Positions 2,165 to 35,043 of a stretch of 39,620 nt of DNA are shown in pieces. Made by a program: the position numbers and the translations under genes. The DNA is from a virus. The notes beneath the pieces were generated by a model, which was given only the letters and a program-made list of their open reading frames with translations, was not told where the DNA came from and made no database searches. Where the stretch lies: IMG/VR virus record IMGVR_UViG_3300045988_070014, positions 1 to 39,620 of that record. One strand, 5' to 3'. Within the stretch, counting starts at the first letter, position 1; every line of letters starts with the position of its first letter.

Positions 2165-2530
2165 TTACTACATTTACTACAAAAACTACACTAATTTCTA
2201 TATAGCAAATATTTATAAAAAAATATATATATAATTTATTATTATAAATAAACTCTTGAAAATAAATGTAGTAAATGTAGTAAATATATATAAAGCTAGT
2301 GATACCAACGGTTTGAAGGGGTTACAAAAATGTAGTAAAAGTGTAGTAAAAAATGTAGTAACCATAAAAATGTAGTAAAGTAATTAATAATATATGAATG
2401 AGTTTTAACAGTTTATCGATAAGTTTTATCATTAAAAATGTAGTAAACTACAAAAATGTAACCGCAAAATGTAGTAAAAATGTAGTATTACTACATAAAA
2501 ATGTAGTAACTGAATCCGAAAATGTAGTAA
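2165..2530. repeat. Iteron array 1 (putative origin / initiator-binding array)
   Basis: 10 forward TGTAGTAA copies (mostly as AAAATGTAGTAA) and 3 inverted TTACTACA copies. An AT-rich tract (aaatatatatataatttattattataaataaa) lies between the inverted and direct sets. The array is immediately 3' of the VapE gene. Confidence 0.85.
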
Positions 2531-2569: not shown

Positions 2570-3853
2570 TTATTCCCAGTAATCTCTTATAAATGGTATT
2601 TTGTAACCACGAATTGATTTACCATCAACTTTATATGGTTGGTTAGGTATTCCTCTCCTCATAAGCTCATTAGCAAGTGCTTTCTTTTCTTTTATATTAA
2701 GCTTTTCAGCTATTTCTGTAAGCTTGTACACTCTCAAGTCGTTACTTTCCCAGTCTACTTTATCATCTAATATGATTGATATATCTGTTTGAGCATTAAA
2801 TTGTCTATTAATTATTTTTTGTTTCGCTTCTTCCTCTTTGGTCAACCAATCGATACTATAATTAGTCAACCACATATCGTATACTGCGCCCCAAAACTCA
2901 AACATATTGAAATTGTCAAACTCTTCTATATTACAAGATTTAACAGGAATTACCCAAAACCTTCTTGAACCTGTTTCGTCTTTTAAGAAATCTTTTTTAT
3001 TAACATTAGCAATATAACTTGTTAGCCTTGGATATATTTCAGCGACACGACCAAACGGAACTCTATATTCATCAGTTGTATTAGTTAAAAACTGCTTAAT
3101 TTTACCTTGGTCAGCTTTTAAAGTTGTATCTAATTCTGCTAACTCAACAAGAATATATTTAGTATTTTGAATCACGCTATCAGTTTTATCAGGGTCTAAA
3201 GATACTCCATCTTTGAACAAGTCATTAAGCGGCATTAATTTACGTGCAAACGTTGATTTACGGCATCCCTGTTCCCCTTGAAGTGTTAATACTCCATTAG
3301 AACTATAACGGTTTTCTAGCTCATTGTGAGCCATTTTAACAACATTTAGAAGCCATTTATAAAACAAAGTGAAATAATACTCCGCATCTTCTAAAGCATC
3401 ATCTTGAAGCGTTAAACACTTTTCAAACACATCAAGCACTATATCGTGATTATTATTTCTATACTTCTTCAACATATCTACAAAGGGGTTTATTTCTTTT
3501 CTATTAGCTATATCAATTAAATATTCGTCGCATACCGCCCTATTAAGATTTAAACCTTCTTTCACTTGTAAATCATATACAAATGTCAGCATCTCACCTC
3601 TTTTTTTAAACTTTCTGCCTTCCATTTGTAAAGTTAATTCATGAGTTATCTTATTCATAACTGGATTTATTCCATAATGATTTAACAAATATTCTAAATT
3701 TGCCATTGTCTTTATTGGAACTGTTCCGCCATCTTTTAAATACTTAACCTCCGGAAATTGTATAAGAGAAACGTTGCTCTTTTTATTCTTAACATCATTA
3801 ATTGAAAAAACTTTTTTAGTGTTTTGCATTTTAATATCCTCCTTATTTACCAT
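2570..3853 (-). CDS. VapE / D5-like replicative helicase-initiator (virulence-associated protein E family)
   Basis: 427 aa. P-loop-like LTLQGEQGCRKSTFARKL and ...GSRRFWVIPV are typical of the VapE family. The more likely start is ATG at 3829 (MQNTKK) after aaggagg. Confidence 0.8.
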   Translation of the reverse strand: MVNKEDIKMQNTKKVFSINDVKNKKSNVSLIQFPEVKYLKDGGTVPIKTMANLEYLLNHYGINPVMNKITHELTLQMEGRKFKKRGEMLTFVYDLQVKEGLNLNRAVCDEYLIDIANRKEINPFVDMLKKYRNNNHDIVLDVFEKCLTLQDDALEDAEYYFTLFYKWLLNVVKMAHNELENRYSSNGVLTLQGEQGCRKSTFARKLMPLNDLFKDGVSLDPDKTDSVIQNTKYILVELAELDTTLKADQGKIKQFLTNTTDEYRVPFGRVAEIYPRLTSYIANVNKKDFLKDETGSRRFWVIPVKSCNIEEFDNFNMFEFWGAVYDMWLTNYSIDWLTKEEEAKQKIINRQFNAQTDISIILDDKVDWESNDLRVYKLTEIAEKLNIKEKKALANELMRRGIPNQPYKVDGKSIRGYKIPFIRDYWE

Positions 3854-3971
3854 TAACTATTTCCATTATAGCGATATGAATAGGTTTTTCACCTCTCCAA
3901 TTATCAAACGCTTTTTTCTCTTTTTCAGTAAGATAGAATTTAACTTGTTTACTTCTCTTACGATTTTTCAT
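3843..3971 (-). CDS. Small ribbon-helix-helix-like protein (42 aa)
   Basis: RBS gaggtg then ATG. Sequence is MKNRKRSKQVKFYLTEKEKKAFDNWRGEKPIHIAIMEIVNGK. The basic N-terminus plus KxVxFxLTxxE resembles an RHH beta-strand. It overlaps the VapE start. Confidence 0.5.
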   Translation of the reverse strand: MKNRKRSKQVKFYLTEKEKKAFDNWRGEKPIHIAIMEIVNGK

Positions 3972-3991
3972 ATTATCACCTCGCAAGACAA

Positions 3992-4020
3992 TAATAACAT
4001 AGTGGGTACACACTTGTAAA
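3992..4020 (-). promoter_or_regulatory. Possible promoter for the RHH/VapE unit (divergent from 4036-4064)
   Basis: Minus strand TTTACA-N17-TTATTA. Confidence 0.35.
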
Positions 4021-4035
4021 GTATTTTTTTATTTA

Positions 4036-4064
4036 TTGACAAAATAATTAAGTAAGTGTATAAT
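4036..4064 (+). promoter_or_regulatory. Conserved-family sigma-A promoter (the only plus-strand copy)
   Basis: TTGACAaaataattaagtaagtgTATAAT (N17), 32 nt upstream of the 4096 ATG. Confidence 0.7.
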
Positions 4065-4095
4065 TAACTTATAAATATTCTTAGGAGGTATTATT

Positions 4096-4374
4096 ATGAA
4101 AGATTATAATTTATATTTAAGTATGAAAGATATAGAAAGATATTCGGATATAGATGAATTTGTTTACAACGAATTGTCTACTGAAAAAACTATAAGGATA
4201 AATTCTATTGGTGATTGGGATGAAGGAGTTGTTTCTGTAAGAGTTGATATATTAGAATTAGAAGCTATCGAAGTTATTTCAAACGCTATAGATGACAATA
4301 TTTTAATAGGTTTCGATTACTTGGGCGGCATAGATACTATAAATTCATTAGGTTTATCAACTTGTTCAAGATAG
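4096..4374 (+). CDS. Hypothetical acidic protein (92 aa)
   Basis: Strong RBS (taggaggt) and its own promoter. The sequence is rich in D/E. Confidence 0.6.
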   Translation: MKDYNLYLSMKDIERYSDIDEFVYNELSTEKTIRINSIGDWDEGVVSVRVDILELEAIEVISNAIDDNILIGFDYLGGIDTINSLGLSTCSR

Positions 4375-4385
4375 GAGGTATTATC

Positions 4386-4598
4386 ATGGGTAGATTTATA
4401 TGTGAAGCTATTCCTTATAACGGATTTAAGGAGAGAATTAAAATATGTAAGGAACTACAAAGGAAAAGAATGAGATTCAGCATAGAAGGAAATATTATAT
4501 TTGTTTATTATAGGAGGGTTGACCTTCTCTTTTTTTTTATGCGATTAAAACAAAAAAAGAAGAGGATTAACCTCTTCGAACATCAAAGAAACTTATAG
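4386..4598 (+). CDS. Hypothetical basic protein (about 70 aa); coding status uncertain
   Basis: Strong RBS taggaggtattatcATG. However, a plus-strand terminator at 4512-4538 lies inside the ORF. Confidence 0.3.
   Translation: MGRFICEAIPYNGFKERIKICKELQRKRMRFSIEGNIIFVYYRRVDLLFFFMRLKQKKKRINLFEHQRNL
4512..4538 (+). terminator. Rho-independent terminator for the plus-strand unit
   Basis: AGGAGG-guuga-CCUUCU stem (one G-U pair) followed by CUUUUUUUUU. Confidence 0.6.
4550..4577 (-). terminator. Rho-independent terminator for the minus-strand small-gene unit
   Basis: Minus strand GAAGAGG-UUAAU-CCUCUUC followed by UUUUUUUG. It overlaps the stop of 4567-4749. Confidence 0.65.
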
Positions 4599-4749
4599 GA
4601 TATAAATTACTTTGATAGCTGTTTATTTCAGTTCCTAAGACACGACAAACATCTTCTGTTTCATAATGCACTAACCAATACTTCTTATCTTTTTCCAATA
4701 TTTTTCTATCAAACTCATCTATCAGGGTCACTTTGCTTCTAATCCACAT
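4567..4749 (-). CDS. Hypothetical protein (60 aa)
   Basis: The aggagg RBS overlaps the end of the upstream small ORF. Translationally coupled arrangement. Confidence 0.5.
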   Translation of the reverse strand: MWIRSKVTLIDEFDRKILEKDKKYWLVHYETEDVCRVLGTEINSYQSNLYPISFFDVRRG

Positions 4750-4758
4750 AAAAACCTC

Positions 4759-4896
4759 CTAAAATCCAAACCAATTAGGTAAATTATAAAACCAATCAGC
4801 TATAAAAGCACCTATAAACGCTATAGTAACAACTAATATTGGTGCTACAACTGTAAAAAACATATTTCTTAAAAACTTTCTATAATTCCATTTCAT
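4759..4896 (-). CDS. Small hydrophobic membrane peptide (45 aa)
   Basis: RBS ggaggt then ATG. Sequence is MKWNYRKFLRNMFFTVVAPILVVTIAFIGAFIADWFYNLPNWFGF, with a single TM helix. Not in the ORF track because it is under 60 aa. Confidence 0.5.
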   Translation of the reverse strand: MKWNYRKFLRNMFFTVVAPILVVTIAFIGAFIADWFYNLPNWFGF

Positions 4897-4928
4897 AATT
4901 AATACCTCCAAATATTTGCTATACCTAA

Positions 4929-4956
4929 ATTATAGCATACTTAATTATATTGTCAA
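4929..4956 (-). promoter_or_regulatory. Conserved-family sigma-A promoter
   Basis: Minus strand TTGACAatataattaagtatgcTATAAT. Confidence 0.7.
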
Positions 4957-4960
4957 CAAT

Positions 4961-4991
4961 AAAATAAAAAAAGAGAGGATTTTTTCCTCTC
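4961..4991 (-). terminator. Rho-independent terminator after the head-gene block
   Basis: Minus strand GAGAGGA-AAAAA-UCCUCUC followed by UUUUUUUAUUUU. Confidence 0.8.
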
Positions 4992-5067
4992 GTCTTAGGG
5001 GTGAGTATATTTTATCAAAGGAGAATTTCATGTCCAACTATATTATACTAAATAGCAATATAAATTG

Positions 5068-5421
5068 TCAACCTTTTAGAATCTGTTCAACTAACTTTTC
5101 GTAATCTTCTCTATAATCCATTATAGCAGGTTTAAGCGTTGGTCTTGCAGGTTGTCTACTCGTCCCATTTTCAAGAAAAATCGAATACGAAAGCGGTGAA
5201 CCTATCACTACTTTATTCTTATCTGCATACCATTGTGTACTGTTTCTAAACCTTCCAGTATCAACAACTTTTTTAGCAGTGATTATCTTTTGCCAAACCG
5301 AAACTATTTTCGTCCCTAAAGCTATAGCGATTTTATTCCCTCTATTCCCCATTTCTTGTTTAAATACGTTGGCGTTATTTTCAAAATTTATTTTCATTTC
5401 TTTTTCTTCCTTTCTTGCCAT
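5068..5421 (-). CDS. HK97 gp10-like tail/neck component
   Basis: The ..VDTGRFRNS..IGSPLSYSIFLENGTSRQPARP.. pattern is typical of the gp10 family. The likely start is 5397 (ATGA overlap with the upstream stop). Confidence 0.7.
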   Translation of the reverse strand: MARKEEKEMKINFENNANVFKQEMGNRGNKIAIALGTKIVSVWQKIITAKKVVDTGRFRNSTQWYADKNKVVIGSPLSYSIFLENGTSRQPARPTLKPAIMDYREDYEKLVEQILKG

Positions 5422-6293
5422 TCTTCAAAACTCATTTTTCTAAGTTTTTCATCAAGTTCTTTTTCTTTTTCTCCTTTTTCGAAACCTATAAATTCAGTAG
5501 TCATAGTACATCTACAACGGATTACTTCACTTGCTCCACCGTTTGGGTCGCCCGGGTACATTAAACCATTACTAAAAAGCTTATCCAAGTCAACTATCTC
5601 GCCGTTAACTCTCTGATGCGTTTCTCTCGTCCTCTTATCCATTGTAGCCAACCATGATTTTTGAATCTTTAATCCTTGTTTTTCTGCAAACTTATAACTA
5701 TCTAATCTACCTACATTTTCTATTCTAGTCGTTTCGGTTCTAGCAATTCTAAGAGAATCATTATAGTTCTTTTCAGTTATCTTTTTAATTCTTGAAGCTA
5801 TCTTTTGCATGCTTTCTCCCTGTAAAAGTCCACTAGCAAGCGCTTTCTTTAATTCCTTATACAAAGCAGTCTTATCTGTTAAATCATCAATAGCCATCAA
5901 AGTAAACGGGTTTATCTCTTCTTTTAATAACAACTTAATAGCGTTTCTATTATAAAGAGTATATCCTATATCTTTAGCAACTGCTTTTTCTACCTCATAA
6001 GCACCCCAGTTATAATTTAAAGAATAAATATCTATCATATCATCGTTCATGATATCCATAGCGACCTTATTGGCATTATTAACAACTAGTGACATTTCTC
6101 TTATAATGGCTTCTAAACGTTTTTTCTGTTGCAATTGATTATATATCTGTTGTGGTTCTTTAGTAGTGTCTATTCGGCTTATAAGGGTATTTAATTTACT
6201 TTTTAATCCCCTTAAAGCATCAGAATATAATTCCTCAATATTCTTTTCTAGCTTAGCAAGGATTTTATCAGTTTCTTTATGTGCTTTATCCAT
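5394..6293 (-). CDS. Minor head protein (Mu F / SPP1 gp7-like)
   Basis: 299 aa, directly after the portal gene. The ...RIARTETTRIENVG...SWLATMDKRTRETH...CRC pattern is typical of Phage_Mu_F. Confidence 0.8.
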   Translation of the reverse strand: MDKAHKETDKILAKLEKNIEELYSDALRGLKSKLNTLISRIDTTKEPQQIYNQLQQKKRLEAIIREMSLVVNNANKVAMDIMNDDMIDIYSLNYNWGAYEVEKAVAKDIGYTLYNRNAIKLLLKEEINPFTLMAIDDLTDKTALYKELKKALASGLLQGESMQKIASRIKKITEKNYNDSLRIARTETTRIENVGRLDSYKFAEKQGLKIQKSWLATMDKRTRETHQRVNGEIVDLDKLFSNGLMYPGDPNGGASEVIRCRCTMTTEFIGFEKGEKEKELDEKLRKMSFEEWQERKKKK

Positions 6294-6333: not shown

Positions 6334-7689
6334 TTACACTACCTCTTCTTTAGATTCTTCTAACTTGAATTTATCTGCAATTTCCTCATCTATTAGTTGC
6401 TTTTCTAGTTTAATGTCATCTATCATAGGATGACTTCTTAAAGCAGTATCTAAACTCATTATAGAAGCACTAACAGAATTAATTATATTATTAATTACTT
6501 CCGTTTCATCTACTAACCTATTTCTAACGAAATTAATAGAATATTTCTCATTAGGTTTCTTGATATATTCTAAGTACAACTGAATTATATTATCGCAAAA
6601 ATCTAAGCAACCAGTTTCAAATTCGTCGGTCTTTAAATCTAAGTCCATCATATTAGCTTTTATAGCAACGTTAGTTAAACTACCACCTGCTAATATAGAA
6701 GTATCAAGTCCCATGGCATCAGAATAAATAGATTTATTTAGCATATTTAAAATAGTTTCTCTAGCTTGATACGGGACTTCTATAGTATGAGGAGTTGCGT
6801 CACCATCTTCGTCAACGTTTATCATTTTATACTGCTTTAAATCACTTAAAAAATCTCCCGCTTCTCCATTATAGTTTTTTAAAGCCCAGTAAATATCTTC
6901 ATTATCTTCAAAGTTATTAGAAAAATCAGAATAAACGATATCGTATAAGTCGATTTTCTGTTTCAAAGCAAATGTAAATCTTGATGTTCTTATATCATTT
7001 GCATATAAAGGGAATATCGGAAGTCTACTAAACCCTTCTTGCCCTACTTCTCTCTCCTCTATAGCGTCTTTAACGGTCTTGATAATGTAATTCTTCTTAG
7101 ATTCTGTTATTTCTATCTTGTTCTTATCACACTTATACTCTGTCTTTCCATCTTCTTCATACAGTTCTATCCACATAGGTTTATCTGTATCTATTTGCCA
7201 AAACCTTATCCCTGCTCTAACTTGACCAGTTCTTTCATCTTCTAGCGGTATAAATTCAGTTCCTCTCCATATATCAATATCAAATTGTCCTTTAGAGTTA
7301 ATAAAACAATAGCCCCAACCCACACCGTCAACAAGCGCAGCAGTTCCGCATCTTTTAAGTTTAATATCGAATTTCTTCCCTAAACCTTCTTTGACTTTTT
7401 CCTCTGTCATAAGCCCGTTTGCTAATAGATAACTAACTTCTTGCTTAATTATCTTAGGAAATAGCGTATTAGCGATTTTATTATTAGCCTTAAACTTATC
7501 TACTACTTGTCTCCCTAAACTATCATAAAGCCATTTAAGACGGTTTTTAATCTTTGTGTTCTCTTCTCTATAATATGCTTGTGCTTCTATAGCATTATTA
7601 TATTTACTCGTTCCTTTAAATTCCTGTATAGCTTGGAGGATAAAAGAAGCTTTATCCCCACTAGCTTGAAAGTCTTGGAATGTTTTCAT
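6334..7689 (-). CDS. Portal protein (SPP1 gp6-like)
   Basis: 451 aa, between terL and the MuF-like gene. Acidic C-terminus. Confidence 0.85.
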   Translation of the reverse strand: MKTFQDFQASGDKASFILQAIQEFKGTSKYNNAIEAQAYYREENTKIKNRLKWLYDSLGRQVVDKFKANNKIANTLFPKIIKQEVSYLLANGLMTEEKVKEGLGKKFDIKLKRCGTAALVDGVGWGYCFINSKGQFDIDIWRGTEFIPLEDERTGQVRAGIRFWQIDTDKPMWIELYEEDGKTEYKCDKNKIEITESKKNYIIKTVKDAIEEREVGQEGFSRLPIFPLYANDIRTSRFTFALKQKIDLYDIVYSDFSNNFEDNEDIYWALKNYNGEAGDFLSDLKQYKMINVDEDGDATPHTIEVPYQARETILNMLNKSIYSDAMGLDTSILAGGSLTNVAIKANMMDLDLKTDEFETGCLDFCDNIIQLYLEYIKKPNEKYSINFVRNRLVDETEVINNIINSVSASIMSLDTALRSHPMIDDIKLEKQLIDEEIADKFKLEESKEEVV

Positions 7690-8053: not shown

Positions 8054-9331
8054 CTAAAAAATTCTATTCGCACTAAAGCTACGTTTCTGTTTTCTTCTTG
8101 CTATATCCATTATAGCATACCTAACCGCGTCTATATAGTGGTCGTTTCCATCGGGATATTTACTTATAAACTGCCCATCTTTATTCATCTCATACTCATA
8201 CCCTATAAATTCCTTAGCGGCGTTTGGGGTTCTTTTCTTATCAATTACAATTTCATCTAACATCTGCAAAAATTTATAAGTGAAATCCCTACTATCAGGA
8301 CCTTTTTTAGCTTTTTGCATATTTAAGCCATACCCTCTCATTTCAGAGATAGATTTAGGGTCAGCACTATCTGCAACAATAGGTTTCTTATAGATATTTG
8401 GTTCTTTTTCCAGTATTTTATCAGTTAGCTTTTTATTGCTCAATCCCTGTTCGTATATTTCATCTATAATATAAAGCTTGTTGTTCTTATAATGGATTTT
8501 ACACCAAGTTGCAGGGTCTATACTAAATCCAAAGTCAACACCATACTCAAATTCCTCCATATTATTTATTTCCTCTTTTGTTATTTCTCTTATAATTACA
8601 TTATCAAATACATTTCCACCAGTTCCAGTTACTTCACCTAAATATTCATGCTTATACGCTTCTTCTTTTACGTTCTTTAGATGTTCAGCTTCTATTATGA
8701 ATTGTTGCCCTAACCAATCAGATGGAACAGTTAAATAGGTACTATGGTGGATAAACCTATCTTCTCTATCAATTAGTTGCTCTTCATTAACCCAGTTATT
8801 CTTAGATTTAGGAGGGTTAAAAGTATAAAACACCCAGTTATCACCATTCTTTCTTATAAAAGACTGTGTCATACTTCTTATCTCTTCCATGCCATTGAAC
8901 TGGTCTAACTCCTCATACCACACAATTCCTATTCTACCGAACGGAACGGTTATACCTTTAGCTTTCATAGGGTCGTCGCAACCTAAAAAGACAATTTCTT
9001 GATTAGTTGGAGTATAAACAATCTTCAAAGGAGATTTATAAACCTTAAAATAACCATTTAATCCTAAATCATTTATAGACCAAATCATCTGATTATAAAC
9101 AGAACCTTTTAATGTCTGCCCTACTTTTCTGACTATAACAGCGTGGCAATCACTATTAGCCATTATAAGAAGAGGAATAACCTTAGATACAAATGAACTT
9201 TTGGTACTTCCTCTCCCTCCTTTAAGCATATAATGGGTGTGATTATGCTCCATAACATCATAAAGTAAATCATCGAAGTTCGGTGCTATTTTCTCCAAAA
9301 AATTAATCTCTCTTGAATACAATGTTAACAC
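8054..9331 (-). CDS. terL: Terminase large subunit (PBSX-like family)
   Basis: 425 aa. Walker A-like KGGRGSTKS, then a C-terminal nuclease region ..DGNDHYIDAVRYA... The start is uncertain (GTG 9331 or TTG 9322). Confidence 0.9.
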   Translation of the reverse strand: MLTLYSREINFLEKIAPNFDDLLYDVMEHNHTHYMLKGGRGSTKSSFVSKVIPLLIMANSDCHAVIVRKVGQTLKGSVYNQMIWSINDLGLNGYFKVYKSPLKIVYTPTNQEIVFLGCDDPMKAKGITVPFGRIGIVWYEELDQFNGMEEIRSMTQSFIRKNGDNWVFYTFNPPKSKNNWVNEEQLIDREDRFIHHSTYLTVPSDWLGQQFIIEAEHLKNVKEEAYKHEYLGEVTGTGGNVFDNVIIREITKEEINNMEEFEYGVDFGFSIDPATWCKIHYKNNKLYIIDEIYEQGLSNKKLTDKILEKEPNIYKKPIVADSADPKSISEMRGYGLNMQKAKKGPDSRDFTYKFLQMLDEIVIDKKRTPNAAKEFIGYEYEMNKDGQFISKYPDGNDHYIDAVRYAIMDIARRKQKRSFSANRIF

Positions 9332-11048: not shown

Positions 11049-11432
11049 TTATTCATCTTCTAAAATTATTTTTGCAACCTTATACCCTTGCCTGTTTTTA
11101 ACATCTTTATCAATTAAATTCTTTGTTGAGCTATCCCGACAACCTAAAAATGCTGATGTTTCTTTTATAGTATCAAACAGTTGTATAATAGGCTCACCCT
11201 CTACATTGCAATCATACACCGCATAACAAACTTTCCTTTGCATTCTAGGTCTTTTCTGTTTTCCCTCTTCAAATTCTATAAATTTCAAATTGCTTCTTTT
11301 GTTTCTTTTATTGCTCTTTATTTGTTTTGATATCATCTTATGATTTATATTCATTAATCTGCCTAAAGCTCGTTGAGAATCCGCTATCGCTATAGGTAAA
11401 CCAAACACATCTTTGTTAAACGCTAGTACCAT
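11049..11432 (-). CDS. DNA-binding protein with two NUMOD1-like modules (nuclease-less homing-endonuclease relative?)
   Basis: 127 aa. Two repeats of the F.S...A...LG.....I motif (FGLPIAIADSQRALGRLMNINHKMISKQI and QLFDTIKETSAFLGCRDSSTKNLIDK...GYKV). No catalytic motif. Confidence 0.4.
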   Translation of the reverse strand: MVLAFNKDVFGLPIAIADSQRALGRLMNINHKMISKQIKSNKRNKRSNLKFIEFEEGKQKRPRMQRKVCYAVYDCNVEGEPIIQLFDTIKETSAFLGCRDSSTKNLIDKDVKNRQGYKVAKIILEDE

Positions 11433-12400
11433 TATTTAATCCTCCTAATCCATTCTTCCGGAATACTTAAATTATATTCTTGCGCTAATATAAACGCCAA
11501 TTTAGAAAAATTAGTAATTCCATAGACTTTTTTAGCGACTGATATTAAATTACCAGTTCCGCAATGTGTAAAGCAAGTGTAAATACCTTTTTCATCATTT
11601 ATAACTAAAGCTCCTTTATTATCTCCACCATGCAAAACACATCTACCAATATAATTACCATTCATATACTTAAATTCCCCGCCTAGATGTTTTTGTATGA
11701 AGTCTTTTAAGCTTATAGATGATATTAGTCTATTTAAACACTCTTCTTTATATTGCGGCTTAATATAATCCTCACCGTCATATTGAGTATATCCTTTTTC
11801 AATAACTTTTTGCTTAGCTTTGTTATCCCTTTTTAGTTTAGATTGATAAGCATTTATAAGTTTTACAATTAATGTACAACTTATAGGAATATCATTCTCT
11901 CTGTAAGTTACTTCTTTATTTGTCCCAGCCCATATGCGATTCGCGTTACTTGTAGCTTGGTCTAAATATTTATTAAATTTCCATTGTAGAGCCTTATACA
12001 ACAACTTATAAGTTTCTACATCAATAGGACTTTCCAATCTATAAATCAATCTGAATTTAGTGTAATTAGTATCACTAAAAGTTGGGTATTCTATTACAGG
12101 GTAAACACCTAGTTTTTTATTTACTAATGCAACCATTTCAAATAATGTAATCTCATTTTCTTTGCTATCTACATCTAAAGCAATACACTCTAAACAATTA
12201 ATGCTGCTTTCAAATATATCTTTACTATCTTCTTGAAATTCTGCTAATAAAACAGAATGACCTCTTTTTAAATATTCTTTTATTTCTCTATAATCAACGT
12301 ATATACAAGGGTAATTTTTCATACCCATTGTAATATCTATCATATCAGTTGCGGTTGGTTTAACTTTATAACCTTTCTGACTTACTTTAATTTTAATCAT
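11432..12400 (-). CDS. DNA primase with a C-terminal CHC2 zinc finger
   Basis: 322 aa. CVLHGGDNKGALVINDEKGIYTCFTHCGTGN matches the DnaG-type CxxH..CFxxCG finger. The N-terminal domain has an acidic ALDVDSKE motif (primase-polymerase-like). Confidence 0.7.
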   Translation of the reverse strand: MIKIKVSQKGYKVKPTATDMIDITMGMKNYPCIYVDYREIKEYLKRGHSVLLAEFQEDSKDIFESSINCLECIALDVDSKENEITLFEMVALVNKKLGVYPVIEYPTFSDTNYTKFRLIYRLESPIDVETYKLLYKALQWKFNKYLDQATSNANRIWAGTNKEVTYRENDIPISCTLIVKLINAYQSKLKRDNKAKQKVIEKGYTQYDGEDYIKPQYKEECLNRLISSISLKDFIQKHLGGEFKYMNGNYIGRCVLHGGDNKGALVINDEKGIYTCFTHCGTGNLISVAKKVYGITNFSKLAFILAQEYNLSIPEEWIRRIK

Positions 12401-12933: not shown

Positions 12934-13260
12934 TTACTCTAGTCTATAAACTTTATTTATTTTTTCCCAAGTATTTCTCCTAACTCTTTTATCTCTTATT
13001 TCTACACCTAAATAAGTGTGATATGGTATTCCTATAAGTTTAGAAGCTTCCTCAATAGTTAAACCCAACTCTTTGCGTTTAGCTTTTATCTTTTCTCTAT
13101 CTATAAAAACATCTTTCATAGTCTTTCTTGATTTTTCTCTAGCTTTTTCCTTTAAACATTCTTTACACATAGACCTATAACCATCTTTCCCTTGTGGGTG
13201 GTGATAGAAATTAGTTTCTATATCTTCGAATGTTCTGTTGCAATTAGTACAAGTTTTCAT
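12934..13260 (-). CDS. Zinc-ribbon plus HTH DNA-binding protein
   Basis: 108 aa. CxxC...CxxC at the N-terminus, and KELGLTIEEASKLIGIPYHTYLGVE (XRE-like HTH). Confidence 0.55.
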   Translation of the reverse strand: MKTCTNCNRTFEDIETNFYHHPQGKDGYRSMCKECLKEKAREKSRKTMKDVFIDREKIKAKRKELGLTIEEASKLIGIPYHTYLGVEIRDKRVRRNTWEKINKVYRLE

Positions 13261-15841: not shown

Positions 15842-16431
15842 TATTTTTGAACTTTCTCCAATCTACTACAAATATTATCGTACTGTTCTTTAGTCATTTG
15901 ACTTATATCAGATACTCCAAATTCTTTTACGCATTGAGCAGTTATAGTTGCTTGGTTTATTCCTTTAGATTTTCCTATAGCAAACAATCTGCTTAATTGC
16001 TTATCTGATAGACCTTCCTTTGGCTTAGAACTTCCGTGAGTAGTTAAATTTGCATCATCGTCTTCGCCTGTATTAAGATTTAAAATAGCTTGATATGAAT
16101 ATCTTCTAAGATAAGTTATTAAACTACCCGCTTGTTGTGGGTCGTTTTTAACTGGTTTCATGAACAAAGGTTCACTCTCTATATATTCTCCGCTCTCATG
16201 TAGTAAAATAGTCTGTATTCCTATTTCTCCAGTTTCTTTGCTCAACGGCATTTGTAAGACTGACAAACCGTTTTTCTGTAATATATCTCTAGTCGCTAAT
16301 ATAAGCTTATCAAGTGTTACATAATCGCTCTTAAAAAATGGATTTTTAGCATCTTTTGATATACTTGTTACTTCGGCATTGAACTTCGCTAAAGCAACTG
16401 CTAATTTAACTATTGTTTCACTTCTATTCAT
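15841..16431 (-). CDS. ERF-family single-strand annealing protein
   Basis: 196 aa. ...KFNAEVTSISKDAKNPFFKSDYVTLDKL...GSLITYLRRYSYQAILNL is the typical ERF core. Confidence 0.85.
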   Translation of the reverse strand: MNRSETIVKLAVALAKFNAEVTSISKDAKNPFFKSDYVTLDKLILATRDILQKNGLSVLQMPLSKETGEIGIQTILLHESGEYIESEPLFMKPVKNDPQQAGSLITYLRRYSYQAILNLNTGEDDDANLTTHGSSKPKEGLSDKQLSRLFAIGKSKGINQATITAQCVKEFGVSDISQMTKEQYDNICSRLEKVQK

Positions 16432-17208: not shown

Positions 17209-17429
17209 TAAATAACTCCCTCCTCTTTAAACTGTTTTATATAAGGTCTTAAAACTTTAACCGTTTCCGGTCCTTTAGGGCAACCTATCATAAAAGCGAT
17301 TCTTTTAATAAATCTAGTTGTTAACTCCGGACTTTTGTAAACTGCCATGTTGGTTTTGCAAGTCCTTTCTTCCATTCTTCTCCAATCTTGAAGTGCTTTT
17401 CTAATTTCACTTTTCTTAATAACCATCAT
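17208..17429 (-). CDS. Hypothetical protein (73 aa), first gene of the early operon
   Basis: RBS aaggaggt. About 30 nt downstream of the promoter at 17460-17487. Confidence 0.55.
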   Translation of the reverse strand: MMVIKKSEIRKALQDWRRMEERTCKTNMAVYKSPELTTRFIKRIAFMIGCPKGPETVKVLRPYIKQFKEEGVI

Positions 17430-17594: not shown

Positions 17595-17917
17595 TTACTA
17601 CACTTACTACAAAAACTACATCATTTTCTATATAGCACATTTTTATATAAAATATATATATTATTTTATTACTTATAATAAAGTCTTATAATTTAATGTA
17701 GTAAATGTAGTAAATATATATAAAGCATTGGTATCACTAGCTTACAAAGGGTTTTAAAAATGTAGTAATTATGTAGTAAAAAATGTAGTAAGCTTAAAAA
17801 TGTAGTAAATATTTTAATTAATCATGAATTGATTGGTAACATTTTGTTTATAATTAAGTGTAGTAAATGTAGTAAAACTACAAAAATGTAACTTAAAAAT
17901 GTAGTAAATGTAGTAAT
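17595..17917. repeat. Iteron array 2 (homologous copy of array 1)
   Basis: 10 forward TGTAGTAA and 2 inverted TTACTACA copies, with the same order of sub-blocks and the same AT-rich core as 2165-2530. Confidence 0.85.
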
Positions 17918-17943: not shown

Positions 17944-18194
17944 ATAATGTAAGCACCTCAATTATTTATAGTCCTTGCAAGGATTGGACAGGCACTCTTG
18001 TTTTAATGTGCAGAGTTGCACTCACCTAGCTTACTTTTTGTTCTTTCGGTGTTAAAGGACTTATTTTCTTATAGAAAGCCTTTGTATCTACTGATACTAT
18101 ATAATAGTTTTTATTGCTTAACGGACAACGCCATCACTACAAAGGCATGAATCCTAGAATGGATACCGAGAAGCTCGTAATTAGAAACGCTTCT
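17917..18194 (-). ncRNA. Structured non-coding RNA of about 275 nt (or long structured 3' UTR), class unknown
   Basis: No ORF, and visibly higher GC than the flanks. Long-range helices are GCCUUUGUA/UACAAAGGC and GUAAGC/GCUUAC; hairpins include GUGCA-acuc-UGCAC, GAAGC..GCUUC and ACUAU-uau-AUAGU. It has its own promoter-like element and a strong terminator. Confidence 0.6.
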
Positions 18195-18200
18195 ATGATA

Positions 18201-18230
18201 ATTATAACACTTACTTACTTCGTTTGTAAA
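18201..18230 (-). promoter_or_regulatory. Promoter-like element upstream of the structured RNA
   Basis: Minus strand TTTACAaacgaagtaagtaagtgtTATAAT (N18). The spacer resembles the promoter family. Confidence 0.45.
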
Positions 18231-18339
18231 GCATCATAGTATAATTCTTTAAATACCTAGCATACTCATAAGCTTCCTTTGTGGTCTTGCAAGTCTTTGT
18301 TTGTAATAATTCGTTAGCGATTTTATCAACATTCTTCAT
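18211..18339 (-). CDS. Small protein (42 aa)
   Basis: RBS aggaggt then ATG. Sequence is MKNVDKIANELLQTKTCKTTKEAYEYARYLKNYTMMLYKRSK. Confidence 0.45.
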   Translation of the reverse strand: MKNVDKIANELLQTKTCKTTKEAYEYARYLKNYTMMLYKRSK

Positions 18340-18396
18340 AAAAAAATACCTCCTAAAGCTTTATATTTTATATATATGCTCTAAGAGGTAAAAAGA

Positions 18397-18924
18397 TTAC
18401 TCTTTTTCTTCAATTTCTTTAACTTTATCATGAAGCATTTTATCAACTAACTTGATATAACTTGCATCATATCCAGTAAACTCAAAGTCTTGTAACCATC
18501 TGCGTATCTTTTCTATTTCTTTAGAAACTCCGCAAAGGGGTTTTAAGACTTTTTCGCTTTCTTTAGGGAATTTAGCGACTAATCTATTAGATATAGAGGC
18601 TATAGTGGTATAAACTTCGATTTCCCAATCTAAATACAATTCTAAATGTTCCTTTATAGATAAAGGTTCTTTAACTCCTTCTAATTCCTCCCAAGACGGT
18701 TCAAGGTTTTCGCTGAACATATCAATTACATAGTGTTGTAAATCCACCCTATGACATCTATCCTCTTTAGATTGAACTTTATGCCATCTTTTAAACCCTT
18801 GTAATCCTTTCATGTGTGCTGACCTGCTAAGGGTATCGTGAATCATTTCACCTCTAGCACTTAAATTTATAGCTTCTTTTAATAGTTTTATAGCTTCATT
18901 GTTGAAATCATAACTTTTAATCAT
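18397..18924 (-). CDS. Four-helix-bundle, ferritin-like protein (tentative)
   Basis: 175 aa. ..AHMKGLQGFKRWHKVQSKEDRCHRVDLQHYV.. resembles ferritin helices A/B (G..GFa.W...Qa.EE..H). Confidence 0.35.
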   Translation of the reverse strand: MIKSYDFNNEAIKLLKEAINLSARGEMIHDTLSRSAHMKGLQGFKRWHKVQSKEDRCHRVDLQHYVIDMFSENLEPSWEELEGVKEPLSIKEHLELYLDWEIEVYTTIASISNRLVAKFPKESEKVLKPLCGVSKEIEKIRRWLQDFEFTGYDASYIKLVDKMLHDKVKEIEEKE

Positions 18925-19312
18925 GTTTTATATCCCTCAATTTCATCATAGTGTTGTTATACATTTTTGAGTGAAGTATTTTCATATCTTCCATTAATTC
19001 ATTTATAACAATCATTATAGCCTTTGTACCAGCTTCTAAGCCATGTTTATTTATTATCTTAGAAACACATTCCATAAACTCTGTATCCTCTCCGAGTGGC
19101 TCGTAAACCATTTTAGCTGATGAATATTCCATGGTTTTATCTTTTTCTAACATAGATTCTATTTTTAAAGCATCTTTTATATTATCAAGTGCCATGGTCA
19201 TAGCTTCAACACATTCACAATCCCATTTATCGGTTACCATAGCTTTCTCTATTTTAGGCAAAGCTTTATCAATTATCTTTCCATTAACTTCTATTATTTT
19301 ATTGTAATCCAT
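18917..19312 (-). CDS. Hypothetical protein (131 aa)
   Basis: The ORF is translationally coupled on both sides. Confidence 0.55.
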   Translation of the reverse strand: MDYNKIIEVNGKIIDKALPKIEKAMVTDKWDCECVEAMTMALDNIKDALKIESMLEKDKTMEYSSAKMVYEPLGEDTEFMECVSKIINKHGLEAGTKAIMIVINELMEDMKILHSKMYNNTMMKLRDIKHD

Positions 19313-19967: not shown

Positions 19968-20585
19968 TTAAACTAATCCACAACCGTAACCATTAAATGC
20001 ACTTGTATATGGTGAACAAGTTATATAAGATGGTGTAGGAAAAGGTCTTAATGTAGAAATTAAGTGAGCATTTTGTGCTTGTTGGCTCAATTGTAAGTTA
20101 GCAGTATTTAAGCTATCTCTTAATGATTGAATTTCTGATTGAGTTAAATAATTGATTATTCTATCGGCATTTTTCTCGCTAGCTTGAATTATTGCGCAAG
20201 TATTTTGTGCGTTCTCATATCTAACCGCATCTATATTTCTATTAGTTTCGCAGCAGTTATTAGATAATTGAGCCTGTAAATCTTTAAAGTTACTTAAATT
20301 TTCATAACCTAAACTACATAATCCTTGTTGTAAAGAATTAGCTGTAAATGTATTTTGGTCTTGTATTCTTCCTAATTGATTAGAAAGATTTGAGTACATA
20401 AAGTCGTTGTTTATTTGACCAACTGTACCATTTGCACCTCCAAATCCTCCGAAACCATTTCCTCCCCATGCTAGCAAAAAGAAAAGGAAGAAAATCCATG
20501 CTCCGCCATTGCCGAACATTCCCTCATCATTTCTGTTATCTAGATTATATACTGGCGTAACGCCTAACCCTTCTGTCATAGCCAT
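19968..20585 (-). CDS. Membrane-anchored Q/N/S-rich protein with conserved cysteines (205 aa)
   Basis: The TM/Gly-Phe segment is GGAWIFFLFFLLAWGGNGFGGFGGANG. A long polar helical region follows, with CC..C, ending ..GYGCGLV. Confidence 0.55.
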   Translation of the reverse strand: MAMTEGLGVTPVYNLDNRNDEGMFGNGGAWIFFLFFLLAWGGNGFGGFGGANGTVGQINNDFMYSNLSNQLGRIQDQNTFTANSLQQGLCSLGYENLSNFKDLQAQLSNNCCETNRNIDAVRYENAQNTCAIIQASEKNADRIINYLTQSEIQSLRDSLNTANLQLSQQAQNAHLISTLRPFPTPSYITCSPYTSAFNGYGCGLV

Positions 20586-20627
20586 GTTTGACTACCTCCT
20601 TAAATATATATATTTATATTAAAGTTC

Positions 20628-20861
20628 TTAGAACTTAATACCAAATTGTTGAGCCATCTGTCTGACTTGCTCTTCATTCATTCCTTTTTGTTTAGCAATA
20701 TTCATAATAGTTTCTTGAATTTGTTGAGGGTTTTTGCCTTCTAACATTTTCTTTGCTTGTCCCATCATAGGATTATTACCAAACATATTCATTAGCTGCA
20801 TAGGATTTATATTTCCCCCTTGCATCATTTGCATTAATTGCATCGGATTAAAATTATTCAT
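20628..20861 (-). CDS. M/Q/N/P-rich low-complexity protein (77 aa)
   Basis: NPMQLMQMMQGGNINPMQLMNMFGNNPMMGQ repeats followed by a helical C-terminus. Confidence 0.5.
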   Translation of the reverse strand: MNNFNPMQLMQMMQGGNINPMQLMNMFGNNPMMGQAKKMLEGKNPQQIQETIMNIAKQKGMNEEQVRQMAQQFGIKF

Positions 20862-24879: not shown

Positions 24880-25530
24880 CTATATCTTTTCAGTAAAACA
24901 ATAATAACCTAACTCATTGCTTATTCTTTGTTGTGCTTTTTCAGCATCTTCTTTATTTGTGAACCTTTGTACACAAACTCTATAATAGTCTTGTTCTTTT
25001 TCTAGTGATATATTGGGGTCAATAGCATTTGCTATATATCTAGCCAGCTTTTCGTACGGAGTTGGCGACCATACTTCATTTATATCATGAGCGTTATCAC
25101 AAAATAGTGTTTCAAAGATAATGTTAGGTGCGTTAACGTTACGCATTTCATAGAGATTTGCAGTTTTAACACCTCTATTGGTTAACCCTAAACTAGCATA
25201 GTTATTGCATAATCTTTGTGCTATATCTCTTATACTTTTTCTAGCACCTTCTGCAACCAATGCTTCTGTACCATGTGCTTGACCATTAAATGAGTTCATG
25301 TGTAAAGATATAAATATATCTACATTTGCATTATTAGCCTTTCTAGCACCTTCTTGCAACTCTGAATTGGCACTACTAGCGTTTGAATTACAATCTACAA
25401 CAATATGCCCATATTTTTCTAAAATATCTTTAGTAACTTTATATAATTGTTGCATCATATCGTATTCATCTCTTAATCCGACCGCACCACGACAATTAGG
25501 TGAGTGTCCACCTCTTAAACCTATTTTCAT
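24880..25530 (-). CDS. N-acetylmuramoyl-L-alanine amidase endolysin (Amidase_3) with a short SPOR-like C-terminus
   Basis: 216 aa. MKIGLRGGHS..., DIFISLHMNS..GTE. The C-terminus YYRVCVQRFTNKEDAEKAQQRISNELGYY resembles one SPOR half-repeat (CwlC-like). Confidence 0.85.
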   Translation of the reverse strand: MKIGLRGGHSPNCRGAVGLRDEYDMMQQLYKVTKDILEKYGHIVVDCNSNASSANSELQEGARKANNANVDIFISLHMNSFNGQAHGTEALVAEGARKSIRDIAQRLCNNYASLGLTNRGVKTANLYEMRNVNAPNIIFETLFCDNAHDINEVWSPTPYEKLARYIANAIDPNISLEKEQDYYRVCVQRFTNKEDAEKAQQRISNELGYYCFTEKI

Positions 25531-34383: not shown

Positions 34384-35043
34384 AGCCCCTTTTATACCTG
34401 CATCCGCCAAAATTCCAAGTTGTGTATTTAATTCTACTGTTCCACCTTTAAGAGATTTCGCAGTTCCTCCAACCGTTAGGATAGCTTCCCCTAATTGTGC
34501 TACATTTGTATTTGCTTTCTGTGAAGTTTTAGCCATTTGGTCGGTGAATCCTTCAAGTTGGTCTGTTTCTATTCCTAAAGCCGACATAGAATCCGTAACT
34601 AAGTCAGAAGCATAGGCAAGGTCAATTCCTCCCGCCGCTGCCAAGTTAAGAACTTTAGGTAATGCACTTATAGCTTTATCTGTATCATATCCTGCAAGTG
34701 CCAAGTAGTTCAACGCTTCAGCTGATTGTGAAGCACTATACTTAGTTGTAGCTCCCATTTGTTTGGCTGCATCCGAAAGTTTTTTAAAGTTAGAATCAGA
34801 AGCATCCCCAACTATACCCATTGTTGCGGCTACTTGATCCATACTTGCTTCAAAATCCATACCAACTTTCGTTGCTGCACCCGCTGCAACTCCTAGACCT
34901 CCAGCTATAACTGCACCAGCAACTTTAGTAGCTTTTCCCATTCTACTCGCAACACTTTCAGTTTTCTTTCCACTTTCATCTATTTTACTATTATAGTTCT
35001 TATTGTCAATGCTTATTTCAGCCATTAAAGTGAATAAATTCAT
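34384..35043 (-). CDS. Tape measure protein, exon 1 (220 aa)
   Basis: Ends ...NVAQLGEAILTVGG...QLGILADAGIKGA, the TP901-1-type TMP core. The unspliced frame runs 5 more codons to a stop at 34366. Confidence 0.85.

Follow-up and report, generated by a model that had tools for sequence, protein, structure and literature searches.

Two paralogous iteron arrays as candidate origin elements of a superfamily 3 helicase in a Clostridium perfringens siphophage

Introduction

What reads two widely separated arrays of the same short repeat in a phage genome, and why are both kept? The question is raised by IMG/VR record IMGVR_UViG_3300045988_070014, a stretch of 39,620 nt (hereafter, the window) that represents the complete genome of a tailed phage (39.6 kb), in which terminase, portal, capsid, tail and lysis functions are all encoded, and that belongs to the phiCP39-O / phiCP26F / CPQ4 group of Clostridium perfringens siphophages. 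Nearly all of its genes lie on the minus strand. The octamer TGTAGTAA, which we refer to as the iteron, is concentrated in two arrays, A (2165-2530) and B (17595-17916), which are separated by 15.4 kb in one direction and by 24.2 kb the other way round the circle. A sequence-only reading of this DNA had offered three interpretations: two origins; one origin accompanied by a copy-control or handcuffing array, as in P1 oriR/incA; or a titrating or enhancer-like array for a regulator that coordinates early and late transcription. Our search of the literature on these arrays, or on VapE together with iterons in phages, returned nothing relevant, and a comparative-genomics paper on four phages makes no mention of repeats, of an origin or of the helicase. 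Here we argue, from sequence comparison and a structural model, that A and B are probably two paralogous Rep-binding origin elements of the phage's own superfamily 3 (SF3) helicase.

Anatomy and homology of the arrays

Exact copies of TGTAGTAA occur 26 times in the window, compared with 2.57 ± 1.40 expected from 100 dinucleotide-preserving shuffles, none of which reaches 26. Thirteen of these copies lie in array A and twelve in array B, and a single stray copy is present at 16199, within the Erf gene. Array A has two minus-strand copies at its left end, ten plus-strand copies and one internal minus-strand copy, and array B has two minus-strand and ten plus-strand copies (Table 1). In array A, a degenerate copy extends the minus-strand pair to an inverted triplet, which is oriented opposite to the iterons across the AT-rich core, and both arrays follow a plan in which opposed iteron sets flank a core of about 75 bp that is 93-95% AT. 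When duplex stability is calculated for 60-bp segments over the window (mean dG -71.1, standard deviation 4.3), the least stable duplex is located at 2192-2251 in the core of array A (dG -53.5; 95% AT) and the second least stable at 17640-17699 in the core of array B (dG -54.1; 93% AT). Both cores lie approximately 4 standard deviations from the mean across 39.6 kb. Moreover, an A-tract (AAAAATGTAGTAA) precedes most of the forward iterons in array A.

The sequence-only reading had described array B as colinear with array A, with an inverted pair and ten forward iterons, had judged by eye that roughly four fifths of the positions match, and had taken this as a sign that the array was genuinely duplicated, in direct orientation, and that the site clusters had not arisen by convergence. 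Our iteron count and alignments agree with this description, and the pairwise alignment that had been proposed as a check reveals similarity extending past the short 8-mers. A colinear MAFFT alignment of A with B gives 80-81% identity, 277 of the 316 aligned positions are identical in an optimal global alignment, and the spacers are also homologous: once the 8-mers are excluded, 76% of the aligned positions (168 of 222) still agree. That homology reaches well beyond the 8-mers is also evident because shuffling the spacers of array B, with the iterons held fixed, lowers the A/B alignment score from 159 to 76.9 ± 6.8 (maximum 103). A block of 32 nt is common to both arrays (2265-2296 and 17695-17726), and array A has about 44 nt extra, with three more sites, at its helicase-proximal end. 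Each array also contains one plus-strand TGTAAC(C/T) site (2457-2463 and 17887-17893), located inside the shared block AACTACAAAAATGTAAC. This site resembles the iterons of other lineages (GGTAACC, TGTTACC), and might be left over from the ancestral specificity or connect the arrays to it.

Across the nine genomes formed by the window and eight relatives, A and B fall into separate orthologous sets, each 97-100% identical, whereas A and B differ from one another by about 20%. The duplication must therefore be older than this group, and both copies have been kept; recent gene conversion between A and B within the C. perfringens group is ruled out by the same separation into orthologous sets. 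Array B is the most conserved segment that we measured, being 98.8-99.1% identical between the window and the eight relatives, with zero variable columns inside its iterons. The corresponding values are 97.3-99.5% for array A, 97.9-98.7% for the helicase gene, 94.0-96.2% for the portal gene, 92.9-96.1% for the primase-like gene, 91.7-96.7% for the Gam-like gene, and 84.8-97.0% for the promoter region below array B. Judged from these sequence comparisons, the duplication is old and under purifying selection.

A SaPI Rep-like helicase as the candidate initiator

Array A begins 40 nt past the stop codon of a gene that encodes a VapE-like SF3 helicase, the nearest iteron ending at 2530 with only a terminator in between. 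The encoded protein matches Pfam family PF05272 (2e-40) and phrog_1313 (8e-101), and is composed of an N-terminal domain, an ATPase (residues 135-353) and a C-terminal winged helix (residues ~372-420). Its only sequence match in the PDB is 7pds (7e-11), the Rep protein of the staphylococcal pathogenicity island (SaPI) SaPI1, although its identity to SaPI Rep is only ~15-18%. An AlphaFold2 (AF2) model built with 53 homologues (pLDDT 86.3) also finds 7pds as its best fold match, over the full length of the protein (TM 0.65-0.70, ~457 columns, E 2e-15) and well ahead of poxvirus D5/E5 and the NrS-1 helicase. Residues 373-420 of the model form a strand, two successive helices and a two-stranded wing, as in a winged helix. 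On the basis of this model, we propose that the protein is a homologue of the SaPI-Rep-type self-loading initiators; several GenBank records label it 'integrase' or 'P-loop ATPase'. No other candidate initiator is present among the ~30 genes that we scanned against Pfam and PHROG, where the search for alternative origin-binding proteins yielded nothing beyond a helix-turn-helix (HTH)/zinc-ribbon protein, a Bro-N antirepressor, a pyrimidine-dimer glycosylase, ERCC4, Erf, SSB and a Gam-like protein.

The self-loading helicases of the SaPI Rep type recognise iterons through their C-terminal winged helix, and the SaPI origin consists of 6-12 iterons directly downstream of the rep open reading frame (ORF) with an AT-rich centre, on each side of which at least two iterons are placed in opposite directions (PMC9371898). 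Array A exhibits every one of these anatomical features, and array B has the same anatomy internally.

Arrays in related phages

Related phages were searched for the arrays and their copy number, as the sequence-only reading had suggested, and all 11 distinct GenBank relatives carry both arrays, in two to three copies per genome. Two arrays are present in every C. perfringens phage genome examined, except that phiCP9O (L003), which is otherwise like phiCP26F, has three. In this phage, array A is tandemly duplicated at 8506-9321 (406 nt x 2.0, 99% identity), which gives 25 iterons at the locus. The C. butyricum phage CB452P1 (L009) also has three arrays, all of which have inverted iterons around a conserved AT core.

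Helicase homologues at 42-66% identity are common in metagenomic phage contigs, and some are fused to a CHC2 primase domain, giving 700-aa proteins with PF01807 and PF05272 in one chain. Despite different iterons (for example, TTGTACC in L013 and TGTAGCA in L016), the same array architecture is seen directly 3' of the helicase ORF in loci L009, L011 and L013-L016, and an array also occupies this position in the rest of the L009-L016 set, including L010, and in L028, L030 and L031. In L009, L011, L014 and L015, another homologous array is inserted in the interval that separates the scaffold gene from the Mu-F-like head gene. Among much more distant VapE-helicase loci in IMG/VR, about 20 of 34 have a lineage-specific 7-mer in 4-12 copies and both orientations within ~300 nt of the ORF end, each locus with iterons having a single array. 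To judge from these sequences, an iteron array 3' of the helicase is general in this VapE-like family, and extra copies are a feature of the clostridial subgroup, one of them lying between the Mu-F-like and scaffold genes. Arrays within one genome always share that genome's own iteron, and would therefore be read by the same lineage-specific protein. Arrays of the same genome are mutual best matches in the window, L009 and L014 and nearly so in L011, the relationship being weak in L015.

Two helicase homologues bear on which part of the protein might read the iteron. P0002 (L010) is 52% identical to the window protein in the N-terminal domain, 64% in the ATPase and 92% in the winged helix, and the array downstream of its gene, a clear orthologue of array A, uses TGTAGTAA. 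P0003 is 74% identical in the ATPase and 65% in the winged helix, and no TGTAGTAA is present in the 180 nt available after the gene. A shared iteron goes with 92% identity in the winged helix, and a different iteron with 39-65%. This is what co-inheritance of winged helix and iteron would look like, as expected of a specificity domain matched to its origin.

A second motif, TTGGTATCACTAG, is also found once in each array, with its orientation inverted between A and B, and the window has no further exact copy of it. All the related lineages that we examined have it in their arrays in the form TTGRTATNACTAG (L009, L011, L013 with two copies, L014, L015 and L016) despite their differing iterons, which suggests a second conserved binding factor of host or phage origin.

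In L016, the early-region gap at 2837-3389 was checked for a second array and has none. At 2900-3180 of this locus a perfect promoter is followed by ~230 nt with no called gene and by a terminator, a stretch that could be a non-coding RNA. The Thy1 (ThyX) gene of L016 carries an intein domain (PF14890).

Proposed role of the arrays

In the mechanism that we envisage for two Rep-bound origin elements, the C-terminal winged helix of the helicase would bind the TGTAGTAA iterons. By analogy with SaPI Rep, two hexamers would then assemble on either side of the AT core, melt it and self-load without a separate loader, after which the CHC2 primase-like protein would prime and the host polymerase would elongate. 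Array A would be the cognate origin, 3' of the rep-like gene and in the slot between the Mu-F and scaffold genes, and array B would be a second full copy heading the early operon. In layout, the pair would resemble the two origins of SPP1, but with an initiator from another family. Given that both arrays are Rep-binding origin elements, we see an even chance that both are able to fire, and we lean towards the competence of both because both keep the full unwinding element. That one of them is mainly a high-affinity Rep site, which stalls forks or stimulates the other origin in the manner suggested for SPP1 oriR or P4 crr, has in our estimate a little under an even chance. Of the three interpretations offered by the sequence-only reading, two origins, or an origin plus an auxiliary array, are accordingly retained, and the array for a transcription regulator is disfavoured for reasons given below.

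A related explanation would assign true origin function to a single array, most likely A by virtue of its place beside rep, and would make the other an auxiliary high-affinity Rep site that acts as a fork block or by looping stimulation. We consider this rather unlikely, even though the SPP1 oriR model is explicit that fork blocking triggers recombination-dependent concatemer synthesis (PMC3485210, PMC6316719), and even though a matching recombination toolkit (Gam-like Gp157, Erf annealing protein, ERCC4 nuclease and SSB) lies by array B. The late-region copy also sits in the SPP1-oriR-like Mu-F/scaffold slot in at least five lineages, and A and B differ by the 44-nt block with three sites. 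A pure roadblock or looping site would have no need of an unwinding element, but conservation of the core extends to both arrays here and to all three of CB452P1. Moreover, both arrays retain the full origin anatomy, their cores being the two least stable duplexes, and the sequence gives no sign as to which copy would be the active one.

A more speculative extension, which we regard as unlikely, is that the late-region copy is not chiefly a start site but a conserved, programmed checkpoint at which the initiator binds, one that SPP1-like phages have retained despite a complete change of initiator family (the gp38 system versus SF3 Rep). Once loaded with initiator, it would stall the first theta fork and so lead to concatemer synthesis, with the orientation-free motif TTGRTATNACTAG recruiting a second factor. 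Such a checkpoint might, in addition, tie the start of replication to the expression of the scaffold/capsid operon, which lies immediately downstream.

Several points weigh against two Rep-bound origins. The link between helicase and iteron is drawn from position, fold and co-inheritance. The P0002 pattern could be a simple recombination block comprising the 3' end of the gene and the array, and the P0003 flank is only 180 nt long. The SaPI family, by analogy with which the mechanism is framed, offers no explanation of a second copy, SaPIs having a single origin, and the close relatives L030 and L031 show one array only in the sequence available. The presence of the conserved motif TTGRTATNACTAG in every array implies an additional factor. 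Both arrays lie just upstream of perfect promoters, and may have an added transcriptional role. Finally, the cumulative GC-skew curve falls steadily and cannot locate origins, because all genes are on one strand.

Transcription signals and a regulatory alternative

The strong terminators ahead of both arrays on the minus strand, and the strong promoters after them, that had been noticed in the sequence-only reading are confirmed, both promoters matching the consensus at 12 of 12 positions with TG (Table 1). Its further statement that the arrays sit at operon boundaries is true of the window but does not describe an intrinsic property. In L011, L013, L014 and L015, the helicase-proximal array is intra-operon, with the next gene within 23-45 nt and no decent promoter after the array (a site with 7-8 of 12 positions matched, or no site). 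These scans of the relatives' arrays, together with those of every promoter in the window, rule out proximity to a promoter as what defines the arrays. Perfect (12/12) TTGACA-N16-18-TATAAT promoters number 11 in the window, of which 10 are on the minus strand, and arrays precede just 2 of these 10. This number of full-consensus promoters is far above the apparent need of a phage with temporal control. It may be that the terminator shields the origin from read-through and that the strong outward promoter leaves negative supercoiling behind.

These signals form the case for regarding the arrays as sites for a transcription regulator, such as the XRE-type HTH or Bro-N protein, that coordinates the 2104 and 17487 promoters and has no role in replication. 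The arrays are 60-110 nt upstream of perfect promoters and just past terminators, and promoter-like sites come after each of the three arrays of CB452P1 and after those nearest the scaffold gene in L011, L014 and L015. Full-consensus promoters require no activator, however, and the sparse occurrence of arrays at such promoters in the window, together with the four relatives in which the helicase-proximal array has no decent promoter after it, makes this explanation improbable. In addition, 12-13 irregularly spaced sites in two orientations around a 75-bp AT core fit an origin rather than an operator, as does the invariable position of an array right after the Rep-like helicase ORF.

Two features lie between array A and the scaffold gene. 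A GC-rich hairpin (GTGAGGAGG-CAA-CCTCCTTCAC) is located at 2112-2133, between the array and the -35 hexamer of the 2104 promoter, and is conserved in L010. The 2104-2076 promoter is followed ~40 nt on by a terminator (2031-2011) and then by a promoter-like site (1998-1969) before the scaffold gene, an arrangement that is also present in L010. As read from the sequence, the region from 2104 to 2011 would give rise to a transcript of only ~60 nt, or would serve the late operon as a leader of the antitermination type, comparable to lambda pR'-tR'.

Plasmid maintenance and neutral duplication

It is very improbable that the arrays serve to maintain a plasmid prophage in the manner of P1 or N15, with one of them an origin and the other either a centromere or an array for copy control or handcuffing similar to incA. 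Two dispersed iteron arrays are formally like P1 oriR/incA, 'integrase' labels appear in several GenBank records, and two of the records are circular. The annotated 'integrase' is, however, the VapE helicase, and no Rep_3/RepA-type initiator, ParA/ParB, integrase or repressor module is present among the genes scanned. The P1 oriR/incA comparison put forward in the sequence-only reading is not supported, SPP1 oriL/oriR being the closer precedent. The number of arrays also varies freely, from 2 to 3, in viable phages. A 30-nt block shared by the arrays has 7 matching stretches from 4 viral contigs and 0 matches in a bacterial genome collection with one genome per species, the latter being a weak test.

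That array B is a neutral leftover of duplication, or that the arrays are selfish repeats with no function beyond array A, is scarcely credible, since spontaneous duplication of array A does occur (the phiCP9O tandem) but array B is the most conserved segment measured while adjacent coding genes are 91-97% identical, the iterons are all intact despite 20% divergence between A and B, and four other lineages with other iterons keep extra copies.

Genome context

Read along the coding strand from array B, the genome has a promoter, small ORFs (the first gene of the early operon starting at 17429), the Gam-like Gp157, Erf, ERCC4 nuclease, a putative thymidylate synthase, SSB and an HTH protein, and then the CHC2 primase-like gene, terminase, the SPP1-type portal, the Mu-F-like head gene and a hypervariable region. 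These are followed by the helicase gene, a terminator, array A, a promoter, scaffold, coat, tail and lysis genes, many small genes, and array B again. The thymidylate synthase label comes from the annotation of relatives, there being no Pfam match to this gene here. The primase-like and helicase genes are ~7.6 kb apart in the window, and they are also detached in the C. perfringens group and in L010, where the helicase gene lies inside the head-morphogenesis module; in L009, L011 and L013-L016 the primase gene is directly upstream of the helicase gene.

The hypervariable region upstream of the helicase gene (3853-5068) holds the sole plus-strand module, which consists of a promoter (4036-4064), two ORFs with no family matches (4096-4374 and 4362-4598) and a terminator (4512-4528). 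In relatives, the region is occupied by a gene for an HNH endonuclease or for a PAPS reductase. Upstream of array B, ~450 nt on the minus strand (17944-18396) separate the array from a 175-aa gene. The sole ORF here, of 42 aa (18211-18339), matches by position a small coding sequence annotated in relatives. This segment has a promoter-like site at 18230-18201, ends at the 17943-17924 terminator, and varies in length among relatives. A 276-nt stretch within it folds barely better than shuffled sequences (z = -2.05) and has no Rfam match, and whole-window Rfam (gathering thresholds) and tRNA scans for structured RNAs were empty.

Table 1. Positions of the array elements, neighbouring genes and transcription signals in the window, and of homologous arrays in related phages (helicase percentages are identities).
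Source	Feature	Position	Strand	Remarks
Window	Array A	2165-2530		13 exact TGTAGTAA plus degenerate copies; lies 3' of the helicase gene, 5' of the scaffold/coat operon
Window	Array A, inverted iteron triplet	2165-2190	minus	2165 and 2174 exact, 2183 degenerate; 9-nt period
Window	Array A, degenerate iteron TGTAGTTT	2183-2190; 2445-2452	minus; minus	
Window	Array A, degenerate iteron TGTAGTAT	2481-2488		
Window	Array A, AT-rich core	2191-2266		putative DNA-unwinding element
Window	Array A, forward iterons	2267-2530	plus	doublet 2267/2276; quadruplet 2331/2342/2354/2371; distal 2439, 2470, 2502, 2523
Window	Array A, internal inverted iteron	2488-2495	minus	
Window	Array A, second motif TTGGTATCACTAG	2296-2308	minus	13 nt
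Window	Array B	17595-17916		12 exact TGTAGTAA; paralogous to and colinear with array A; precedes the early/recombination-replication operon
Window	Array B, inverted iteron triplet	17595-17620	minus	17595 and 17604 exact; degenerate TGTAGTTT at 17613-17620
Window	Array B, AT-rich core	17621-17696		
Window	Array B, forward iterons	17697-17916	plus	17697, 17706, 17761, 17772, 17784, 17801, 17859, 17868, 17900, 17909
Window	Array B, second motif TTGGTATCACTAG	17728-17740	plus	
Window	VapE-like SF3 helicase gene	2570-3853	minus	427 aa; stop codon 2570-2572
Window	Scaffold gene	1326-1916	minus	
Window	Mu-F-like head gene	5394-6293	minus	
Window	Portal gene	6334-7689	minus	
Window	CHC2 zinc-ribbon primase-like gene	11432-12400	minus	Pfam PF01807 at 3e-7; presumed helicase partner
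Window	XRE-type HTH protein gene	12934-13260		
Window	Intrinsic terminator	2566-2545	minus	between the helicase stop codon and array A
Window	Promoter, TTGACA-17-TATAAT with TG	2104-2076	minus	12/12; fires away from array A to the scaffold and coat genes
Window	Intrinsic terminator	17943-17924	minus	directly upstream of array B in the direction of transcription
Window	Promoter, TTGACA-16-TATAAT with TG	17487-17460	minus	12/12; fires away from array B into the early operon
Window	Perfect promoters, starts	31575, 23720, 17487, 16489, 14156, 12909, 11041, 5071, 4956, 2104	minus	
Window	Perfect promoter, start	4036	plus	
L009, C. butyricum phage CB452P1	Arrays, iteron TGTTCCC/TGTTACC	4437-4690; 24990-25250; 34400-34745		helicase 47%; second array 3' of helicase, third upstream of scaffold/capsid
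L011 (P0028)	Arrays, iteron GTTACCTA	11264-11535; 20386-20793		helicase 50%; after helicase and before scaffold gene
L014 (P0008; L028 looks alike)	Arrays, iteron GGTAACC	11272-11561; 18726-19013		helicase 50%; after helicase and before scaffold gene
L015 (P0038)	Arrays, iteron AAGTTAC	11256-11500; 20101-20352		helicase 47%; after helicase and before scaffold gene
L013, L016, L030, L031	Arrays, lineage-specific iterons			helicase 45-51%; one array right after helicase; genomes partly available

Comparison with known replication systems

P1 has a RepA-type initiator, and the copy number of the plasmid is controlled by handcuffing. Like P1 oriR/incA, the window has two clusters of the same iteron on one replicon, but it differs in having no RepA-type initiator, Par or repressor among the genes scanned and no evident plasmid lifestyle. 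The alpha protein of satellite phage P4 is an SF3 helicase with a C-terminal winged helix that recognises short iterons at both ori and crr, 4.5 kb apart. The crr element is needed in cis and stimulates the origin at a distance by looping, and reportedly is a direct-repeat pair rather than a full origin copy with its own AT-rich core. The likeness, which makes P4 ori/crr a possible further analogue in function, lies in a helicase with a winged helix and in the same iterons at two loci, with a spacing of 15 kb in the window. Whereas primase, helicase and DNA-binding domain form one chain in alpha, the primase-like gene here is separate and 7.6 kb off.

The closest likeness in initiator and in origin anatomy that we describe is to the Rep/ori module of the SaPIs. 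Both have a VapE-type SF3 initiator with a C-terminal winged helix, which is predicted here and is seen in the structures of Rep1 and PriRep5 (PDB 7pds; PMC9371898), short iterons directly 3' of the rep ORF, an AT centre between opposed iterons, and a separate or fused primase partner. The window differs in its 8-mer iterons in 12-13 copies and in the extra conserved motif TTGRTATNACTAG found in every array. It also departs from the pattern of one origin on each island (PMC9371898), because it is a full tailed phage rather than a satellite island and has two dispersed arrays (three in phiCP9O and CB452P1). On this reading, full-sized clostridial phages would also use a self-loading Rep/ori module of the SaPI type, and would have two or three copies of it at dispersed sites. 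For the biocontrol candidates among C. perfringens phages that make up the phiCP39-O/phiCP26F group, a concrete replication model becomes available, and a recurrent annotation error is corrected in that the 'integrase' or 'P-loop ATPase' would be a Rep-like initiator helicase. Cloned arrays are expected to behave as origin-titrating elements of a phage-resistance type and, together with the helicase and primase genes, as minimal replicons.

In layout, the window is most reminiscent of SPP1, in which oriL and oriR lie ~13 kb apart on the circular map, each has repeats and an AT-rich unwinding element, and gp38 binds both (PMC6316719). The oriR region is a late-region segment that is bracketed by transcription signals and carries morons (PMC6316719). 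Stalling of forks at gp38-oriR is proposed to switch theta replication to concatemers, aided by a resolvase, an exonuclease, an annealing protein and SSB (PMC6316719, PMC3485210). The window likewise has two regions that are alike, 15.4 kb apart, with the helicase as the inferred common binder in place of gp38, and one copy, which is in the late region with transcription signals and morons around it, interrupts the order of head genes (portal, Mu-F, variable region, helicase, array A, scaffold). It also shares the SPP1-type portal, the Mu-F-like protein, the position of scaffold and a recombination set of Erf, ERCC4, SSB and Gam-like proteins. SPP1, in contrast, employs gp38, the loader gp39 and the DnaB-type helicase gp40, whereas the window has an SF3 Rep-like helicase; no gp38/gp39/gp40-type domains were found in the early genes scanned, and the sole helicase is the SF3 VapE-like protein. 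Moreover, oriL is inside the initiator gene whereas array A is 3' of it, and the iteron sequences are unrelated. The phage is not a member of the SPP1 replicon family, because the initiator family is unrelated. The most intriguing aspect of this comparison is that phages whose initiators are unrelated have in common a two-origin layout in which one copy lies just before the scaffold gene, so that the long-unsettled role of SPP1 oriR becomes testable in a second, independent system.

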